Shown: piece by piece, positions 6,729 through 63,077 of the stretch
Position numbering within the stretch: position 1 is the stretch's first letter
Layout: each line of letters begins with the position of its first letter
Source of the DNA: Octopus vulgaris
Lineage: Eukaryota
Length of the DNA stretch: 64,000 bases
NCBI GenBank assembly: GCA_951406725.2
Contig: OX597831.1
Coordinates: forward strand, 29,264,001 to 29,328,000
Direction of reading: 5' to 3'
Translations under genes and position numbers: made by a program
The notes under the pieces: generated by a model
What the model was told of the DNA's origin: nothing
Seen by the model: only the letters and a program-made list of their open reading frames with translations
Databases searched by the model: none

Positions 6729-7360
6729 AATCCCCCTACTGGGAACTTTCGTGAAAGTAATCCCACCCACATCCCACTCAGAACTTTCGAGGAAGTCATT
6801 CCTCCCCTTCCTCCTCCTTGGAACTTTCCAAGAAGTCATTCCTCCCCTCATCGGCACTTTCCAGCAAGTAATTCATCCCCTCCTTGGAACTTTCCAGGAA
6901 GTAATTCCCCCTCATCGGAACTCTCCAGGAAGTAATTTCCTCTCCTTGAAACTTTCCAGGAAGTAATTCCCCCCCTCGGAACTTTCTAGGAAGTAACTCC
7001 TCCCTTCCCCACTTCTCGCAACTTTCCAGGAAGTAATTTCTCCCCTTCCTACTCCTCATCGGAACTTTCCAGGAAGTAATTCCTCCCCATTCCTCGGAAC
7101 TTTCCACGAAGTAATTCCTCCCCCTCCCCGGAATTCTCCTTGTAGTAATTCCTTCCACTCCTCGGAACTTTCAAGGTAATTTCCTCCACATTGGAACTTT
7201 CTGGAAAGTAATTTCTCCCCTTCCTACTCCTCATCGGAACTTCTTAGGAAGTAATTCCTCCCCTTCCTCCCCCCCTCGGAACTTTCCAGGAAGTAATTCC
7301 TCCACATCATCGGAACTTCCCAGGAAGTAATTCCTCCCCTTCCTCCCCCTCCTCGCAAAT
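6729..7360. repeat. Minisatellite, ~17-18 units of a GGAACTTTCCAGGAAGTAATTCC core plus a variable C/T-rich linker
   Basis: Read directly; units are about 29-42 bp and degenerate toward the left edge. Confidence 0.9.
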
Positions 7361-7579
7361 TTTCAACAATTTAATGGTGCAAACACATTGTAATGAGGAT
7401 ACACAGAACTAGGAGAGATTTACGGATGAGCAGACTCATTATTAAAACTAGTCAAATACTGAGTTGTTTGTTGACTCAACGCTTATTTAAGCAATGTATC
7501 TATCTATCTGTCTGTCTGGCTATCTATCTATCTATCTATCAATCTATTTATCTATCTATCTATCTATATATCAATCTAT

Positions 7580-26548: not shown

Positions 26549-27019
26549 TAGGAGAAGGTAACTCAGGTAACTGGGATAACTCCGACATAAAACCTGCGGC
26601 TCAGTGGTTACCGATGATGTTGACTTGTTCTTCTTTTCGGATTATGGCTGCTGTTGCTTAGTGGGTGGGATTGACTCAGTGCATAGCCTTTCCTCACTTA
26701 AAAAAAAATCTTCTTGCACAGGCATTGCACGATAACAACATTGATTAAGCTTCGTGCCTTTGTTAGGGCATCCTTCTAGGCGAAGGTAACTCGGGTAACT
26801 GGGATAACTCCGACATAAAACCTGCGGCTCAGTGGTTACCGATGATGTTGACTTGTTCTTCTTTTCGGATTATGGCTGCTGTTGCTTAGTGGGTGGGATT
26901 GACTCAGTGCACAGCCTTTCCTCACTTTAAAAAAAATCTTCTTGCACAGGCATTGCACGATAACAACATTGATTAAGCTTCGTGCAATGGCTATACTCGA
27001 TAACGAGGGGGCAGCCACC
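26549..27019 (+). mobile_element. Two tandem 5'-truncated family R copies (26549-26757 and 26759-27019) in a (TATG)n tract
   Basis: Both match ~16755/16773-17013; the first lacks the terminal ~35 nt. Confidence 0.85.
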
Positions 27020-36278: not shown

Positions 36279-36710
36279 CATCATCATCCTAGTCAGGTGT
36301 CGCACTATGCGATGCTGTGGTCATCACGATGTCTTGCCACCTTCTCCCGTCCTCTACCCCATGGACAGCTGAGAATAAAGACAATCCTGTGGCTGCGATG
36401 TCTTTCAGCCAAGAAGTGGGTGGTCTGCCTCTTTTACGTCTGCCGTTCACCTTACCAGTTATGATCGTTCGCTCAAGTCCATCCCGGCGCCTGACGTGGC
36501 CGAGGAACCGTAGCTTCCGCTTCATGATGTTTCGCCGAAGCGTCATCTCACAACCGAGCTTTTCTAGTACCCAGTTGTTCGTCCTTCTCTCCGTCCACGA
36601 CACTCTAAGGATTCTGTGGTAACACCACATTACAAAAGCGCTCACTCTTTTCTCGTCTGCCTTCAACATTGTCCACGACTCGCAGCCGTACGTCGCAATA
36701 GAGAAAGCGG
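36279..36710 (-). mobile_element. 5'-truncated RTE (BovB-like) LINE with a (GAT)n tail and a putative CAGCT target-site duplication
   Basis: Translates TYGCESWTMLKADEKRVSAFVMWCYHRILRVSW...KLRFLGHVRRRDGLERTIITGKVNGRRKRGRP. CAGCT occurs at 36274-36278 and 36711-36715. Confidence 0.88.
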
Positions 36711-37035
36711 CAGCTACCAGAAGGGTTACGATAATGAGAAGGTGCTCTTTGGTGTGAGCGAGGCTGGTGAAGAAATGTGAGGCCTTGATCGTAGATTTCC
36801 TGGATCAGGGTTGACCTAGGGTTGACCACTACTACCAACAGCTACAAGAGGGATTACGATAGTGAGAAGGAAGCCTTTGGTGTGAGCGAGGCTGGTGAAG
36901 AAATGTGAGGCCTTGATCGTAGATTTCCTGGATCAGGGTTGACCTAGGGCTGACCACTACTACCAACAGCAACAAGAAGGATTACAATAATGGGAAAGGA
37001 ACCTTTGGTGTGAGCGAGGCTGGTGAAGAAATGTT
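36711..37035. repeat. Tandem repeat of a ~125-bp unit (~2.6 copies)
   Basis: CTTTGGTGTGAGCGAGGCTGGTGAAGAAATGT occurs three times. Confidence 0.9.
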
Positions 37036-40622: not shown

Positions 40623-40870
40623 ATATAGTAAAAGCTATTTGTCAGCATAATATGGCTGTCCTGGAAGGGACGTTATCACTGTTCATTAGCCCCAAGAAGC
40701 TTCGTTTCTAGCTGGCTATACGACACACTGAGTCCTTATATTTTCGAACCGAAAATTCAGCATCCCCACCTACCACAAAAACAGCATCTGTAGACTAATT
40801 TCAGGGTTATTATCCTTTATCAACACAGAGCAGCTGCTTGGCCAGGTGGCGCTGCCGAATTCCCGGTTCG
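40623..40870 (-). mobile_element. Hammerhead-bearing non-coding repeat (family H), copy 1
   Basis: Homologous to 43857-44100 and the reverse complement of 61990-62141 (shared AAGGG..., TTAGCCC.A.GAAG, GACAC..., GTCCTTAT blocks). Confidence 0.7.
40777..40838 (-). ncRNA. Type I hammerhead ribozyme with a U3-A8 core variant
   Basis: - strand reads TCTGTG-TTGATAA-AGG(ATAATAAC)CCT-GAAA-TTAG-TC|TACAGA. Stem I has 6 bp, an internal loop, and a distal helix AAGCAGC/GCTGTTT. Confidence 0.7.
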
Positions 40871-41384
40871 AATAAATAAATTTCAAAGTGACACACAGCC
40901 ACTGAAAGAGAAATAATATTTCTAAATCTCTCAGAGATATTTTCGAAAATATGAGTACACAGATAGTGTGTCGTATAGTCAACTAGAAAAAGGTAAAATG
41001 AGTAATGACTGTTTTAAGAATTTCGCTTCTTCAACTGCATGGTGCGTAAATATATTCGGAGCCATTCCAGCAGATTGTGAAGGAACGATAGAGAATATTT
41101 GAAGTTGATTTTTTTTTATTTCTTGGAATTTCGTTAATTTCATATCACGTGGCATTTTTCAATGATCCTCTTTCAATTTAACCGAGATATTAAAAATTTT
41201 TGTTGCATTTCTGATCTTTCTGATGTCTAAGGATGAATATCGATGCGCATAAGTTTGTTTTAAAATGTAATTCTAGAGAACTGTTATCTTATCTTGTCTT
41301 ACTCATTTTGCCCCATCTAAATTTGTTTGGTATGTTATAGTGATTTTAATGCATTTAGAGGGAGCCATTTACTTACTCTTACTC

Positions 41385-41745
41385 TTTTTACTCTTTTATT
41401 TATTTCAGTCATTTGACTGCGGCCATGCTGGAGCACCGCCTTTAGTCGAGCAAATCGACCCCGGGAGTTATTCTTTGTAAGCCCAGTACTTATCCTATAG
41501 GTGTCTTTGCCGAACCGCTAAGTGACGGGGACGTAAACACACCAGCATCGGTTGTCAAGCAATGCTAGGGAGACAAACACAGACACACAAACACACACAC
41601 ACACATACATATATACATATATACGACAGGCTTCTTTCAGTTTCCGTCTACCAAATCCACTCACAAGGCATTGATCGGCCCGGGGCTATAGTAGAAGACA
41701 CTTGCCCAAGATGCCACGCAGTGGGACTGAACCCGGAACCATGTG
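41385..41745 (-). mobile_element. SINE family A (5' end missing)
   Basis: Near-consensus body and tail. Confidence 0.85.
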
Positions 41746-41998
41746 CCGTAAAATCTCCTCATTGTGCCCCTCACCCCATACTAAAGACATGAGACTGTTA
41801 TTCAACAATAACGTCCTCATAGATTTTATGGGTTATTTCACCTGTTTACTACTTGTCTCTCTTGCGTAAACCGCTGTTGGCAGAACAATGGTCTGATACA
41901 GCAGTATCTTCTCACAGGTTGCTAATCGAAATGCTGCTCAGATCTCGTTCATTCCTCTGAACACTAGCAAGGTATATATATATATATATTTATATTTA

Positions 41999-42200
41999 CG
42001 ATATAGTGCATATTTATACACATAAGGAATCCACTTAGTGTGAGTTTGACACATTAGAGAGAACAGCTAGGTTCTATAAACCACAAAAATAACGGATAAA
42101 ATTCGACAGGAATAAATTTGGAAATAAAAAACATTAACCATCAATGTGTTGAATCTCACACCAAGTGGATTCCTTATGTGTATAAATATGTACTATATCG
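41999..42200. mobile_element. MITE-like element with ~58-bp inverted arms, TA-flanked
   Basis: CGATATAGT(G/A)CATATTTATACACATAAGGAATCCACTT(A/G)GTGTGAG at 41999-42055 is the reverse complement of 42143-42200. Confidence 0.75.
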
Positions 42201-42265
42201 TATAACTAATATATAGTCTTCTTGACTAATTTTTTTGCACGTTAGACCACTGGAAATGTAAATTT

Positions 42266-42310
<45 letters not shown>

Positions 42311-43097
42311 CAAAACACCCCCCCCCCCCCCAGTCCAATGGACGGTGCTGAGTTGTCAAACATTTAAACCAAATTTTCTCAAAATAACTTGTCCGACCCT
42401 TTGAGAAACACTGATTTAACCTAAATTTGAGACACCAGCAAAAGAAGAAATAAAGATAGACTTTTTTCTGTTCCAAAGAAAAACGATTTTATTCACACAA
42501 ATATGTAACCGAAGAGTTTAAAGTACCAGTAATGATAAGGCTGTTGACTGGGAGAACACAAACGTGGTTTAAACAGTAAGCTTGGCAGGAAAGAAACGTA
42601 CCTATAAGCTGTGCAAAAACAACAAAAAATGGAAGGTGCAGTTATGTACAGGTTGACGAAGAAAAGCAGGACAAAAACGATGCAAGCAAATGGGTTAGCT
42701 GGAGGTAAATATAGATGGAAAAGCATAAACATGTAGGAGATCAACTTGGACCGATTTTTGGTGAAAAGCAACAACCTAGGGAACTAAGTAACTAATTTTA
42801 TTATTTCAAGCCAGCCGGCTTTTTTTGCGCAAACTGCACGTGCATTTTTCTCGCGTACGCGTAGTATCGAGCGCAACAGCTGATGTACTTGCGCGTACAA
42901 ATGCACGTTCCCACGGTTTTATCGATCGTATTCTCACCTGGAATCGATTTTTAAGACTCATACACGCCCTGATACCGTCGGTATCTACATATCAAATTTG
43001 AGCACAGTCTGATGAAGGATGCCCGAGATCCTAGAAGACACACACACACAGACAGACAGACAGAACGGATTTTATATTATATTATAATAATATTATA

Positions 43098-43310
43098 TAG
43101 ACGCAGGAGTGGCTGTGTGGTAAGTAGCTTGTTTACCAACCACATGGTTCCGGGTTCGGTCCCACTGCATGGCACCTTGGGCAAGTGTCTTCTACTATAG
43201 CCTCGGGCCGACCAAAGCCTTATGAGTGGATTTGGTAGATGGAAACTGAAAGAAGCCCGTCGTATATATGTATATGTATATATGTGTGTGTGTGTTTGTG
43301 TGTCTGTGTA
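43098..43310 (+). mobile_element. SINE family A, 5' half
   Basis: Head and A/B boxes. Confidence 0.8.
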
Positions 43311-43323
43311 AAAGAGAAAAAGA

Positions 43324-43364
<41 letters not shown>

Positions 43365-43647
43365 TACATAGCCACAAAGACAATATATATATTTTATACA
43401 TTCGTACATGTACGCATACGGACGTATCTAAATACAGTAAATAGCGGCATTTTGATTTTCATTTTTCATCGTTTTCTCCAGAGGAAAGGCGTAAGTCATC
43501 ACATTCAAATTAATTAATCATGTATGTTAATTATGCAATTATATAAATGAAGAAGACTTTTTTTACTCTTTTGAAACAACTGTGGAGAACCATTAACTTA
43601 TGAATCATATGTGAAATTTCTGCTGTCCTGCTTTATATATATATATA

Positions 43648-43845
43648 ACGGGAAGCTTTATGAAAATAAACAAAAGACGAAGGCAGGTGGAGTACAAACA
43701 AACAATTGTATTAGTATGGCGCTCAGGAATATAAATAAAACAAGTCTTTTACGTTTCGAGCCTACGCTCTTCAACAGAAAGATACACAGAAAAGAAACAC
43801 AGAGAGAAACAAGGAGAGAAAAAAAATGCGTGCAGAAGCTAGCGA
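43648..43845 (-). mobile_element. Family P1 element with (TA)n on both sides
   Basis: Homologous to 575-735 and 52434-52620. Confidence 0.75.
43745..43782 (-). ncRNA. Minimal type I hammerhead motif with a variant core
   Basis: - strand reads TCTTT-CTGTTGA-A-GAGC(GTAG)GCTC-GAAA-CG-TA-AAAGA. Confidence 0.65.
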
Positions 43846-43856
43846 TATATATATAA

Positions 43857-44100
43857 AGTAGTTGCATACTGTCAACTTAATGTGACAGTCCCATGAAGGG
43901 AATCATTCCACTGCTATTTAGCCCTAGGAAGCAGCAAAGCATCCTGTCGGCCTTGACACCATTTCCCGTGTCCTTATGCTTGCAAGGGGGAGATAAGCAG
44001 CCCCACCGAGCTAAGCCTGCATCCAAAGACTAGTTTCTGAGTCTTTGCTCGTCATCAGTCTGGAGTAGCATGGCCAGCTAGTTGGAGATGCCTATCTAGC
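43857..44100 (-). mobile_element. Hammerhead-bearing non-coding repeat (family H), copy 2
   Basis: Homologous to 40623-40870; abuts (TA)n; terminal hairpin CTGTCA...TGACAG at ~43870-43890. Confidence 0.7.
44009..44079 (-). ncRNA. Type I hammerhead ribozyme with a canonical core and GUC cleavage triplet
   Basis: - strand reads TCCAGA-CTGATGA-CGAG(CAAAGA)CTCA-GAAA-CTAG-TC|TTTGGA, with a palindromic ACTAGT stem III and an extended stem I. Predicted cut lies between + coordinates 44028 and 44027. Confidence 0.8.
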
Positions 44101-44320
44101 CGACAGGAAGCTTTTAACTAATTTGTTTTCGTACTTCATGTTGTTTACTGTTGGTGACGTTCTGTACCTATATATCGTCCTGTACCCATATATACGTCGG
44201 AAGAATTTGAACTCAGAACATAAAGACGGACGAACTGCTACTAAGCATTTTGCCCGGCGTGCTAACGATTCTGCCAGCTTGCAGTCTTGATTCGTATTAA
44301 TAATAATAATAATAATGATG

Positions 44321-49165: not shown

Positions 49166-50780
49166 AGCAGCAGCAACAGCATCTACAACAACAGCAACAG
49201 CAACAACACACTATATCACTACAACGTACTTATTGTCTTTGGCAGACATTCTTTTACGGATGGTCATTGTTGAGATCGATCTCAGTATATCATTGGTAAC
49301 AATTTCGGCAACCTTAGAAGAATGAAAAGTAAAAATAACCTCGAGGAATTTGAACCCAGGACAAAAAATATATATTACTTTAAACACAGCATTCTGCCGG
49401 TGGAGAGATGAATCGCTGCTGCCTCTAGCGGTCGTGTGTCCATCATTGACAAGGCCACACAAGGTCGAAATCACGTTATCTGGTTGCCTCGGTGCAGGAG
49501 GTAGCAGGGATTTTATCTCACTGCTAGCGATATAAACAAGTGTGCATTTTGCACCAAAATGCCAACATGCGAGGTTCTCTCATGGAATCTATCACAGTAT
49601 AGTCTGTTCTAATACAGCATCCAATTTCTTTATTAGCCACAAGGGCCCAAACATAGAGGGGGACAATACAGCCTGATTGGGGTCAGACACAATGATTATA
49701 TGACTTTTTAAATTTTACACAATATAATGAAATCGAGTGAGATACAACAAGGACAAAATACAAACATGAAATGAAGCAGAGAGATGGCTTACGCTCCGAC
49801 CCCACGAGCCCCATTCTCCTACTGGAACCTTTGTATGCAGACTTATGACATGTTCACGAGGAATCTTTCATTCCCAGCACCCTCGCAACATGCAACCATC
49901 TTTCTTTGAACATTTTCTTTGACAGGCATCTTCTCTCCAGCCTCTCCTTGCTTTTAAGGTGGAAGATAAAAAATCTCACCAACCCGAGAACCGTGGCGAT
50001 GAATATTTACCTTTGGGTATTAATATTGCCTCTGTCGATAATATATTTATTTTTTACAACATTCTTTAAACGACACTCAGCCGATTCTGTCATTCAAGAT
50101 TGCATTTCTCTCCAAATTAAACGTTTCAAATTTTCTCACATGGCCATCAATTTAAGGGGGAGGGGGTTAGTCGATGACATCGACGCCAATAATTTATCGA
50201 TCCAGAAAAGATGAAAGGTAACTTTGGCCTCGGTGGCATTTGAACTCAAAGCATAAAGAGCCGGAAGAAATGTCTCTAAGTATTTTGTCCGGCGCGGGAA
50301 ACAATTTCGCAAACTCACCGCTTTGTTCCACCCCAAAATAATGATGTCTGCTGTGTCACATATTTAGTTGAAAGGGGAGGGGTATTAGTGTTCATATACG
50401 TACCCACGCTACACAACTGGTACTCCATTTTATAGAGCTTGCAAAAGATGGCTCATCTCGGGATCTAAAAGGCAATTATTTTATTTTTTCCACTCACACA
50501 CCAATGACGGCTTCGGCAGGATTTGAACTCAGAAGGCAATTTGTCCCCCATTTTACCAGTTATGACGCACTCCACCAATTTCTCCTTCACTTTGTGTCTT
50601 TTCTCATTTTGTCCAGCACTCTACCGATTATGAACATCTACTCACTACCATTGACGTCACATTTCGACCAATAACTATAGGCTCTCACATCATTCATCCA
50701 ATGGTAATTAAAAAAAAACAATGATAAAATTCATCAAAAACGATTTTTCTTCTGTTGTGAGGAGACCACCACCAACCCAC

Positions 50781-53220: not shown

Positions 53221-54477
53221 CGACGGACGTTCAATAAGTAATGCCTCTGACCCACTTGCAGTTGTTTGATCTCTATAGAGTAAGTGGCAAATTACAGCAC
53301 TGAATTAATTCTGGTTTCTGATTTACAGATGTTTGAACCGAGTCAAGTGTTAAATGGAGCCTGTTGAGTGTCGAGCAGTGATCCGGTTTTTGTATTTGAA
53401 AGGACGCATACCACGGGAGACTTTTGATGAAATGAAAGTAACTTATGGTGATGATACCCCATCATATGACCTTGTAAAACGCTGGCATCGTGAATTCAAA
53501 CATGGTCGGAACTCTGTGGAAACAGCTCCCAGATCTGGTCGCCCCCTTCTGCCATTGATGAGGCATCTGTCCGTCAAGTTGAGGCTGCCATTTTGGAAGA
53601 TCGACGCATAACTATTCGCCAAATAGCCCATGAGGTCAAGATTAGTACCGGGTCTGTGGAAACTATCATTCATGACCATTTGCATATGCAAAAGGTATCT
53701 GCCAGATGGATTCCCAGGTTGCTCCCGCCGTTCCAGAAGCAAGAACGCGTCGAGTACTCGAGGGTGAATTTGGAGAGGTGCCAAGAAGATGAGTCAAAAT
53801 TTTTCAAAAGACTGATTACACAGGATGAAACCTGGGTCCATCACGATGATCCAGAGACCAAAGCCCAGTCAATGCAGTGGAAGCACCGTGACTCACCTCC
53901 TCCAAAGAAGTCAAGGGTGCAGCCCTCCGCTGGCAAGGTCATGCTCACAGTCTTCTGGGACCAGGACGGAGTTGTGATGACAGATTTCCTGGCAAAGGGT
54001 ACCACAATTGCAGGAGCCTATTATGCTTCACTTTTGAGGAAATTAAGAGAAGTTATCAAAATCAAGAGGCGGGGCAAGATCAGCAAAGGCATCCTCCTCC
54101 TGCAGGACAACGCTCCGGTCCACAACTCGCTTGTCGCCAGATCAGAAGCACAGGTGTATGGCTATGAACTCCTCCCCCATCCCCCTACTTTCCTGACCTT
54201 GCACCCTCTGATTTACACCTCTTCCCAGTCATGAAGTTGTTTTTGAAAGGAAAGCGTTTCCCAGATGATGCAGCCTTGATTTCTGAAGTCGCGTTCAGGT
54301 TGGAGGACCAAGCTGGGGTCTTCTATAAAAACGGTCTCCAGAGCTGCATCAAACAATGGGAGAAATGCGTAACTCTGGGTGGTTCCTATGTAGAAAAAGA
54401 CTAATAACTGTGCCAAGTTTCGTTGCTCTACTGCTATGGGAAGTGGGTCAGGGGCATTACTTATTGAACGCCCCTCG
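53221..54477 (+). mobile_element. Full-length mariner (DD34D) transposon, 1257 bp, probably irritans-like
   Basis: 37-bp TIRs (34/37 identical) CGA(C/G)GG(A/G)CGTTCAATAAGTAATGCC(T/C)CTGACCCACTT with TA on both flanks. Confidence 0.95.
53354..54404 (+). pseudogene. Mariner transposase with two -1 frameshifts
   Basis: MEPVECRAVIRFL...RSGRP; WIPRLL (WVPHEL-like); TQDETW; LQDNAP; HPP-YFPDLAPSD (D34D); ends WEKCVTLGGSYVEKD*. Frameshifts fall in C-runs near 53545 and 54185. Confidence 0.93.
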
Positions 54478-60232: not shown

Positions 60233-60414
60233 CATATATATATATATATATGTATATATGTATAGCTATATATAAATAGCCCCACACCCCCAGTGGCTAG
60301 CCACATTCAGATGGCTAGTACACTTTACGTTGTCGAGCGGTTACTGTTTATATCTCGTTCAGAGATTTTATTAATGCTTATATATAAATATATACACATA
60401 TATATACATACATA

Positions 60415-61746: not shown

Positions 61747-61960
61747 CTAGCAGTATCGCTCGGGGTTGCTCGGGTTTGTTTCGACCCTTTAGAATTGGAA
61801 TTTTTGAAAAGTAAAAACTTTTGCATTATGTAGCTTGTTATTCTCTAGTTAAGTGAACACTTTTCTGGTTGAAATACACCGAAAAATGGCGACACAGCAG
61901 TCAAAAAATCGTAAAAAATAGGGATTTTCATAGAAAAAAGCACCTTTTTGATGTAGATAA
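61747..61960 (-). mobile_element. Probable non-autonomous Helitron 3' end
   Basis: The - strand ends ...CCCGAGCAACCCCGAGCGATACTG-CTAG|T, i.e. a degenerate GC-rich subterminal hairpin followed by CTAG-T. Confidence 0.5.
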
Positions 61961-61989
61961 ACTCGAGTCCGTGTGTATCATAAGTTGAA

Positions 61990-62141
61990 GACGGGAAGGA
62001 TGACTTCCCTTTGCAAATACTGACAGGACACAGAAAGTGTGTCTATGGCCAGCTGGAGGAGTGTGTCCTCCTGGGGCTAAAAACTACAGTAGCATCCACC
62101 CTTAGGGGTTAGCCATATTGAAATGGCAAAAATACGTCACT
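61990..62141 (+). mobile_element. Family H 3' portion (hammerhead absent), running into (TA)n
   Basis: Reverse complement aligns to 40623-40740 and 43857-43990; hairpin GCCAT(ATTGAA)ATGGC. Confidence 0.6.
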
Positions 62142-62169
62142 ATATATATATATATATACACACACACAT

Positions 62170-63077
62170 AAGGATGTTTGAAAATATTTGATATCATTTC
62201 GCAATCAAATAACTTTGTCACTTCTTGTTCAAATGACTTCAAATTTTAACAGTATGTGTAGAAACAGGTCAAAATTGTATGTTTAATGTTTGATATGTTT
62301 ATCTTTTCGGGTATAGAAATAGCGTTCAGTGGAAGAGAAAAGGCGTTTTGTGTGTTGGCGTATGCTCGAACACAGTCGAACAAGACTGTGCAGCGTGCAT
62401 TTGTGAGATGGCTCTCTAAGAAGTCACCAACGGCAATGCAGATTTGGACATGGCGCAAAACATTCAAATAGGAAGGCTGTCTGTGCAGGGCAAAAGGATC
62501 TTGACGATCAACATCGGAAGAGACAGTCGAGCGGGTTCGTCAAATACTCTAGCGAAGTCCCAAGAAGTCTGGAAACCCAGATTCCTCCATCGACAGTTTG
62601 GCGCGTCCTGAGGAAACGCTTGCTAATGAAACCCTACAAACTGCAGCTCCTTCAGGCCATTACGGCGAATGACAAGCGAAAGAACAAACAATTCTGTGAT
62701 GATATACAAAAGACTTTGAAGAAACCGAGTTCAAGGAACTTCTTGTTTTCAATGATAAGGCCACATTTCATACGAATGGCAAAGTCAATAATCATGATGT
62801 TCGCATTTGGGGCGAAGAAAATCCGCATGCCACAATATAACATGAGAAGGACTCACCAAAAGTGAATGTGCTCTACGCCATCTCCAAGAAACATCTTCAT
62901 GGCCCGTTTTTGTGAAATCGTTCATGGAATCCACATACCTTTGAATTTCTCATTCAAATTTTGGGGAATAAATCTTATGTTGCTCAACATTAAGCCTGTT
63001 CAGTTTAATTTGTTTTGACCATGTAATTTCTGTGATATTTACATCTCAAATGATAACAAATTTTTTGAAACACCCTG
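62170..63077 (+). mobile_element. Decayed Tc1/mariner-superfamily transposon with a DUF4817-type HTH (rosa/DD41D-like), 3' part deleted
   Basis: Imperfect TIRs CAGGGTGTTTCAAAAAATTTG.TATCATTT with TA on the right flank. Translates EKAFCVLAYARTQSNKTVQRAF and, frameshifted, DKATFHTNGKVNNHDVRIWGEENPHAT...DSPKVNV...HGPF. Confidence 0.8.

Follow-up and report, generated by a model that had tools for sequence, protein, structure and literature searches.

A hammerhead-bearing, non-coding repeat of Octopus vulgaris: likely a retrozyme moved by Penelope-type machinery

How does a short non-coding sequence that carries a hammerhead ribozyme, but no enzyme, spread through a genome? The question is raised by a 64,000-nucleotide stretch of Octopus vulgaris DNA (contig OX597831.1, positions 29,264,001 to 29,328,000; hereafter the window, in whose coordinates all features are given). 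A preliminary description had read 40623–44100 as a single feature, a dispersed repeat of about 240 nt with two diverged copies that share a hammerhead fold. The copies and their motifs lie where they were described, and a four-subfamily profile matches all four places in the window at which related sequence had been reported (E 9e-60 to 4e-23). The size and the unity of the feature were mistaken. The real unit is a circularly permuted, non-coding monomer of 349–360 nt, and because its two main copies come from separate subfamilies, at about 65% identity, and no open reading frame (ORF) of at least 130 aa occurs in the 2.9 kb separating them, 40623–44100 is not one element. The possibility that the two copies flank one Penelope-like element (PLE) was rejected on the same two grounds. 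The window holds four independent truncated insertions, from four subfamilies of one repeat.

The F1 copy (40623–40937, − strand) spans about 315 of the 349 nt of its unit, at 85% identity to its subfamily consensus, and ends about 170 nt past the cleavage site, at the position that we call the short site. Previously placed at 40623–40870, it extends to 40937 and is accompanied by the inverted, head-to-head short arm of the same insertion (40942–40989, + strand, unit positions 45–92). Its type I hammerhead (40829–40787, − strand) combines stem I TCTGTG/TACAGA with the core TTGATAA, a U3-A8 variant absent from the preliminary description, and has a predicted cleavage after 40793; stem II contains one mismatch and one change breaks the stem III palindrome. 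The F2 copy (43853–44101, − strand), 249 nt of a 351-nt unit at 95% identity to its consensus, is 5′-truncated, ends at the short site and has a short (TA)n at its 3′ junction (43845–43855). Its type I hammerhead (44064–44022, − strand; predicted cleavage 44028/44027) has stem I TCCAGA/TTTGGA, the core CTGATGA with a C3-G8 pair, and a palindromic stem III. Stem II is GAG/CTC under a C.A mismatch at its base, which is fixed in F2 and F7 and has a precedent in axolotl HHR_Amex2 (PMC7229834). Both stem I sequences and the strand agree with the preliminary description; the stem II pairings it compared, AGG/CCT and GAG/CTC, are both present, but their registers are shifted by one base relative to one another. 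Two further fragments, then placed at about 60278–60335 and 61990–62141, do belong to the family, with other extents and on the + strand. The F4 fragment (60282–60379, unit positions 127–223, 98% identical) has no hammerhead, ends at a second, long site and is flanked on both sides by (TA)n. The F3 fragment (61959–62140, 99.5% identical) starts within the 3′ half of the hammerhead (C17 at 61969) and ends at the short site, next to (TA)n at 62141–62158. The two named copies are old, partly decayed and single-hammerhead; the youngest subfamily is that of the 61959–62140 fragment.

Scanning both strands of the window for the core together with a paired stem I returned exactly two sites, those of the named copies; relaxing the scan brought in one further, weak site at 49446. 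A comparison with Rfam Hammerhead_1 (RF00163), which had been proposed as a check, gave no match at E≤10 for either the F1 or the F2 copy and 32.2 bits (E 1.6e-6) for their young relative F3, slightly short of the model's gathering score (34). Among the 150 of 468 matches listed from an Rfam scan of the whole window, all were miRNA models on microsatellites. Relative to shuffled sequences, the F1 copy folds strongly (z −8.1), and the F2 copy alone is weakly better than its shuffles (z −2.0).

Beyond the window, the genome-wide BLAST search that had been suggested yielded 1,152–2,406 first-look candidate matches for each of the copies, and we estimate about 35,000 insertions in the genome. They fall into seven subfamilies (F1–F7) that are 50–75% identical to one another. 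Most genomic copies are dispersed and truncated, and others form head-to-tail arrays of up to about seven units; in F3, 24 arrays with a spacing of 353 bp hold 71 full units, and locus L135 carries eight hammerheads within one insertion. The loci analysed are the best BLAST matches to hammerhead-spanning queries (for F3 partly a trimer), so that long copies are over-represented among them. The repeat also turned up when four contig-only runs of conjectural RNA status were compared with an F3 dimer; such contigs cannot reveal ends, strand or circles.

Is the hammerhead maintained? A canonical type I hammerhead, with a 6-bp helix I, a 4-bp helix II and a short palindromic helix III, is present in all seven subfamily consensuses. 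Helix positions pair in 264 of 280 cells within subfamilies compared with 77.8% across subfamilies, a count that follows a correction of register in helices H1, H2 and H4 (247/287 on the first pass). Across subfamilies, 24 of 40 hammerhead pairs have changed on both sides, and none of 50,000 permutations reached the observed pairing, in a test whose sample is small (seven related consensuses) and which ignores their tree. The signal is seen in each stem. Stem I pairs in 40 of 42 cells versus 57%, with all six pairs doubly changed; stem II pairs at 88.9% in nine real copies versus 67.9% after shuffling; and stem III is perfectly palindromic in seven of seven subfamilies, with five different sequences. 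Loop 1 and a 6-nt loop 2 with a terminal A are kept in all seven. This covariation shows selection on RNA structure. The whole monomer is also highly self-paired: circular folds of the seven consensus monomers have MFE z scores of −3.9 to −9.9, the self-pairing expected of retrozymes, and a long rod spanning the cleavage site is kept in every subfamily.

These properties resemble those of metazoan non-LTR retrozymes. As described by Cervera and de la Pena 2020 (PMC7229834), the mussel (350–390 bp) and axolotl (330/353 bp) elements are likewise non-coding tandem units of about 350 bp with a canonical type I hammerhead, GC below 50%, a self-paired circular fold, long target duplications and coexistence with PLEs. 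The octopus monomers are non-coding, flank no internal ORF and have a GC of 40–43% (F1–F4); genomic F3 arrays consist of head-to-tail units within the retrozyme range of 150–450 bp and contain at least two consecutive complete hammerheads, an arrangement that the four window copies themselves lack. Unlike the elements described there, the octopus copies are mostly dispersed and truncated, and seven subfamilies coexist that do not share one catalytic 3-8 pair. Vertebrate non-LTR retrozymes (bioRxiv 10.64898/2026.07.22.740005) likewise show a mix of monomers, dimers and multimers, co-occur with PLEs and are proposed to depend on them. The literature searched contained no cephalopod non-LTR retrozyme. 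The repeat is likely a new member of this known class, possibly catalogued earlier under another name.

The ends of the insertions indicate which machinery moves the repeat. In seven of seven subfamilies the 3′ ends are bimodal, at two fixed positions about 45–60 nt apart: about 171–180 nt (short) and about 217–235 nt (long) past the cleavage site. Inverted insertions account for 78 of 158 loci, and where both ends are canonical, 63 of 66 have a short end on one side and a long end on the other (binomial p 1e-15). F3 3′ ends abut TATAT/ATATA in 60 of 63 cases against a background of 7.5%, and TA lies on both sides of the insertion at 69 of 155 loci. At loci without (TA)n on both sides, direct repeats of 8–14 bp occur in 21 of 86 cases versus 1.2 in shuffled pairs; target duplications, where visible, exceed 4 bp, as in retrozymes. 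Two internal reverse-transcription start sites, a tail at one end, an inverted 5′-truncated arm and a (TA)n or AT-rich target, the marks of PLE-mobilised sequence, are all present. A one-ended tail of this kind is also described in PMC8557442; PMC11167929 traces the 'tail' to two RT start sites and describes two fixed internal 3′ ends, one per arm, as PLE-specific. Because its insertion ends match those of Penelope-like retrotransposons, the repeat is likely a retrozyme with borrowed Penelope enzymes, and we hold with high confidence that it is a retrozyme moved by PLE machinery. Together with the covariation and the tandem arrays, these marks bear out the earlier suggestion that the repeat is a retrozyme-like retroelement, non-autonomous and equipped with a hammerhead, whose RNA structure has been under selection.

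Other mobilisers have to be weighed against this reading. A satellite or SINE-like repeat, its hammerhead a chance match or a relic, could have been moved by a LINE (Dong/R4, RTE, CR1) or spread at the DNA level; LINEs, too, show 5′ truncation, microsatellite targets and long duplications. The use of two fixed 3′ ends, one per arm (63/66), is however PLE-specific according to PMC11167929, and covariation shows selection on RNA structure, which leaves this explanation the least credible of those considered. Scarcely more probable is that the copies are solo pseudo-LTR (pLTR) remnants of an autonomous PLE family outside the roughly 60 PLE loci sampled. The repeat does show all of the PLE insertion marks, Xenopus retrozymes share homology with pLTRs (bioRxiv 10.64898/2026.07.22.740005), and the sample is small beside the 190 Penelope-like families in a published octopus annotation (PMC13282606). 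Yet the sequence upstream of the hammerhead leads back into the 3′ part of the unit itself, as many as about seven times over, and not into a reverse transcriptase (RT)/GIY-YIG ORF; the outcome named beforehand as refuting the reading, ordinary pLTRs of a Penelope family, did not arise. PLE protein matches occur at only 10 of 171 repeat loci, and at the nine inspected the PLE fragment, from one of several PLE families and mostly past a (TA)n tract, is a separate element. Counting against our main reading, none of the 60 PLE loci has a homologous terminal repeat detectable with the four-subfamily profile, whose four matches within them are separate insertions. F3-like sequence beside PLE fragments at L140 and L265 was considered as a 3′ UTR or chimera and rejected: these are separate insertions beyond (TA)n, absent from other copies of that PLE. 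Origin from an extinct pLTR is possible.

Intact PLEs that encode RT and GIY-YIG and leave the same insertion signature occur in this genome. Sixteen of 148 GIY-YIG matches lie in 781-aa open frames with RVT_1 and GIY-YIG domains and a C-X4-C-X2-C linker, and two PLE families have their own hammerhead, a (TA)n junction and short and long 3′ ends. In accounts of EN+ PLEs (Neptune-type, Craig 2021, PMC8557442; Poseidon PAc, Frangieh 2024, PMC11167929) we find the same inverted 5′-truncated arm, optional one-end tail, two internal RT starts, (TA)n or AT-rich targets and type I hammerhead with palindromic stem III. The octopus repeat differs from them in having no ORF, a canonical rather than minimal hammerhead, a unit that is the whole element and a tail of 44–59 rather than 30–40 nt. 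Chlamys PLEs such as MRC1 are likewise non-autonomous, multicopy head-to-tail insertions by PLE machinery; according to PMC8557442, they differ in sharing 3′ sequence with autonomous partners, and most are without canonical hammerheads.

What serves as template? The cleavage site is rarely where copies begin: of 267 5′ ends, only 4 fall within 5 nt of it, and where copies cross it, 267 of 268 do so without a gap. Units differ by 2.9 changes within an array versus 7.7 when arrays are compared with one another. Of 28 array-wide variants, 21 are confined to one array, and inverted arms share these variants; some insertions have two multi-unit arms with private variants in common. We consider the following route. 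A locus with at least two hammerheads would be transcribed; two hammerheads, given their observed fold and palindromes, could pair through stem III and cut out a monomer; the observed rod would keep its two termini close to each other, and they would be sealed into a circle by a host ligase, as inferred from mussel and axolotl retrozymes (PMC7229834). A PLE RT/GIY-YIG protein would then nick AT-rich DNA, mostly (TA)n, and start reverse transcription at one of the internal sites about 171–180 or 217–235 nt after the cleavage site; priming of both strands, each from a different site, would yield a head-to-head insertion. The enzyme is here assigned from the observed sites, asymmetry, targets and duplications. 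Reverse transcription would pass the ligation site and circle until drop-off, giving 0.2 to about 7 units, with the observed read-through pointing to a circular template. For PLE-driven movement with the circular RNA template included, in which cleavage and circles are inferred, we put the probability at roughly 0.7. The window copies, with at most one hammerhead each, are likely dead ends.

The same family and the same PLE machinery could instead use uncleaved linear array transcripts, with arrays growing after insertion by unequal crossing-over and the hammerhead in a side role such as release from read-through transcripts. The homogeneity of arrays is also compatible with uncleaved transcripts from source arrays that were already homogeneous, or with unequal crossing-over at a later stage. 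In 6 of 10 arrays inspected, chosen partly as odd, haplotypes switch or variants occur in only some units, and L238 and L251 have one inversion junction in common between unrelated flanks (a segmental duplication was rejected, as the flanks show no homology); these mosaic arms and the shared junction speak against a single monomer circle, which does not predict them. Published work also counts against a cleavage-dependent model: an Anolis PLE inserts unprocessed RNA, its main in vitro substrate, and does not need the hammerhead (PMC11167929), only one of nine Xenopus retrozyme dimers showed cleavage, and local amplification has been proposed for arrays (bioRxiv 10.64898/2026.07.22.740005). A linear transcript, however, predicts repeated junctions or carried flanks, and only one pair among 40 F3 loci shares a 5′ junction; multi-unit arms with common private variants, and the cleavage-site rod and palindromic stem III kept in all seven subfamilies, likewise argue against it. 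We judge this alternative unlikely, though a serious competitor to the circular template.

The proposal bears on the mobiliser of animal retrozymes, for which PLEs are named only as a candidate in the accessible text of PMC7229834, where the two-start-site signature is unreported, and the mechanism remains to be shown (bioRxiv 10.64898/2026.07.22.740005). The vertebrate link consists of co-occurrence and Xenopus pLTR homology, with no mollusc sampled, whereas the octopus link is one of insertion mechanics: each of the seven subfamilies shows the PLE-specific signature at its insertion ends. A more far-reaching version, which we advance tentatively and consider somewhat doubtful, is a cephalopod superfamily of viroid-sized RNA circles, reverse-transcribed by rolling circle, in which a dimeric Penelope enzyme would prime both (TA)n strands from two fixed circle sites, one per strand, and the U3.G8 pair fixed in young, successful lineages, a natural intermediate between C3-G8 and U3-A8, may slow re-cleavage and stabilise the circle. 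If true, it would be direct genomic evidence of animal retrozyme movement without terminal-repeat homology to a helper. Near-identical young copies and intact PLE ORFs in one genome make template, start sites and enzyme testable in vitro, and a repeat of this abundance warrants separate annotation.

Young subfamilies have fixed the catalytic 3-8 pair in three different states, C-G (as in F3), U-G and U-A (as in F5), which offer hammerhead biochemistry a natural series. The literature searched yielded no paper on the activity of U3.G8 hammerheads. Despite their youth, F4 and F6 have this wobble, and F6 also has a GUU triplet; these changes may weaken cleavage, which counts against the main reading.

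A profile search of the window placed five repeat segments exactly, belonging to four of the subfamilies (F1–F7) of one non-coding, hammerhead-bearing repeat: an F1 copy at 40937–40623 (minus strand) with an inverted arm at 40942–40989 (plus), an F2 copy at 44101–43853 (minus), an F4 copy at 60282–60379 (plus) and an F3 copy at 61959–62140 (plus). The two main copies, F1 and F2, are separate insertions, and the window stretch between them contains no open reading frame (ORF) of at least 130 amino acids. Both hammerheads lie where the preliminary description placed them, with the stems it described, but the repeat length of about 240 nt that it gave was too short. The unit is circularly permuted, because the 3′ flank of some genome copies continues into the 5′ part of others; three further subfamilies recovered through divergent matches bring the total to seven, and the seven monomers (349–360 nt) can be aligned over their full length at 50–75% identity. 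Median copy-to-consensus identity is 87% for F1, 95% for F2, 96% for F7, 98–99% for F4, F5 and F6, and 99% for F3, medians that are biased toward young copies because the sampled copies are the best matches. F3 has copies that are 100% identical and arrays spaced at 353 bp, and one insertion carries eight hammerheads, six on one arm and two on the inverted arm. The source genome is microsatellite-rich (2.8 Gb, 227 contigs); a sample of 10-kb segments, 80 in all and taken at even spacing along ten large contigs, contained 11 matches in 10 insertions, with none in reversed sequence, which extrapolates to about 35,000 insertions genome-wide (Poisson range roughly 17,000–64,000).

The covariation proposed from the window copies was borne out across the family. 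In eight helices, 264 of 280 cells were paired within subfamilies compared with 77.8% across subfamilies, and none of 50,000 permutations matched the observed pairing. The registers of three of these helices had been revised after an initial count of 247/287, which likewise gave 0/100,000 permutations. Both sides change in 24 of the 40 pairs, and the signal is concentrated in the hammerhead (stem I, 40/42; distal stem I, 31/35; stem II, 26/28), all 15 pairs of which are doubly changed. Circular folds of all seven monomers were far better than those of shuffles (z from −3.9 to −9.9), the predicted fold being a long rod that has the hammerhead and a hairpin cluster as caps. All seven subfamilies have a perfectly palindromic stem III (ACTAGT, ACTCGAGT, ACTATAGT, ACATGT and ACATGCATGT), a form described as acting as a dimer (PMC4209133, available text).

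The catalytic 3–8 pair is C-G in F2 (29/30), F3 (181/184, overlapping loci counted) and F7 (17/17), U-G in F4 (17/18) and F6 (19/19), and U-A in F5 (16/16). F1 is mixed, with 13 U-G and 13 U-A among 29, and these states are linked to differing stem II sequences. U3-A8 is a natural covariant known to be active (excerpts of PMC3088659 and PMC4209133); the literature searched yielded no report of U3·G8 hammerheads. The repeat family offers a natural series of hammerhead core variants.

The 5′ ends of insertions are spread around the unit: of 267, only 4 fall 5 nt or less from the cleavage site. That site is crossed 268 times, 267 of them without a gap; therefore, a cleaved linear monomer cannot be what usually serves as template for reverse transcription, which leaves circles and uncleaved multimers. 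Units within one array are near-identical and share array-private variants, the inverted arm included, and 5′ junctions are hardly ever common to different loci, a combination that favours a circular template. Counter to a template made up of circles only, mosaicism is seen in several arrays, and an identical inversion junction, at unit positions 207/116, occurs in two loci whose flanks are unrelated (L238:1490–1510 and L251:2509–2530); that of a third locus (L250) is near-identical. The mosaics and the common junction therefore imply that reverse transcription also switches templates or uses multimers, or that recombination follows later. Clusters of 5′ ends occur at unit positions of about 116, 134 and 207.

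Every subfamily has two 3′ end classes, about 170–180 nt (short) and about 217–235 nt (long) past the cleavage site. Head-to-head insertions make up 78 of 158 loci; 12 of the 78 have at least one non-canonical end, and among the 66 with both ends canonical, 63 pair a short end with a long one. The target sequences are (TA)n or AT-rich, and where a target duplication can be seen it spans 8–14 bp. In an Anolis Penelope-like element (PLE), reverse transcription begins at two internal sites bounding the genomic 'tail' (PMC11167929, in part), and a PLE tail is frequently found at just one insertion end (PMC8557442, in part). The genomic evidence for PLE-type mobilization of the repeat is unusually clear. 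Intact PLEs are present in the genome: 16 of 148 GIY-YIG matches lie in 781-amino-acid frames with reverse transcriptase (RT) and GIY-YIG domains, accompanied by an additional ORF upstream and by hammerheads spaced about 4.7 kb from each other. Like a second PLE family, this family has its own two classes of 3′ end, one short and one long, located at (TA)n. The repeat appears to work like a non-autonomous PLE, but neither these two families nor the other sampled PLE loci have sequence in common with it, terminal-repeat homology included.

The young, Neptune-like family (L138:1318–5018 and relatives, L131–L139 and L142) has a 479-amino-acid ORF1 overlapping the 781-amino-acid RT/GIY-YIG ORF, a U3-A8 minimal hammerhead in its terminal repeat, a tail of about 36 nt and a (TA)n target. 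The second family (L140, L141, L259, L265 and L268–L270) has the hammerhead core CCGAAGA (a U4C variant); its stem III is palindromic and its tail about 30 nt long. The 3′ region of a third (L253–L255, L258, L261 and L271) is a duplicated block of about 250 bp in which a motif scan found no canonical hammerhead. In L015, L036, L046, L051, L055, L095 and L305, and also in L265 and L119, repeat copies adjoin PLE fragments of several families, mostly with a (TA)n tract in between; this pattern suggests that both kinds of element insert into the same targets in nested fashion.

By every criterion testable from sequence, the repeat agrees with non-LTR retrozymes as characterized in the available text of PMC7229834 and bioRxiv 10.64898/2026.07.22.740005. 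The retrozyme-like interpretation in the preliminary description was correct in outline, and the repeat is probably a member of this known class, with cleavage, circles and a partner enzyme predicted. Judged by title or abstract, none of the papers found on hammerheads or retrozymes in octopus or cephalopods describes it. In the text, as opposed to the repeat library, of a 2026 octopus repeat annotation (PMC13282606), 'retrozyme' and 'ribozyme' are absent from the main part, and 'retrozyme' and 'hammerhead' from the one supplement searched. The host lineage is likely one in which no non-LTR retrozyme has previously been described.

Elsewhere in the window, three frames were judged by eye: one of 246 amino acids at 53494–54234 (plus) resembles a mariner transposase fragment, one of 152 amino acids at 62407–62865 (plus) a Tc1/mariner transposase remnant, and one of 171 amino acids at 36289–36804 (minus) a C-terminal piece of the ORF of an RTE-type LINE. 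The window also contains a 31–34-bp minisatellite (6808–7362) and a near-perfect 228-bp tandem duplication (26549–26985).
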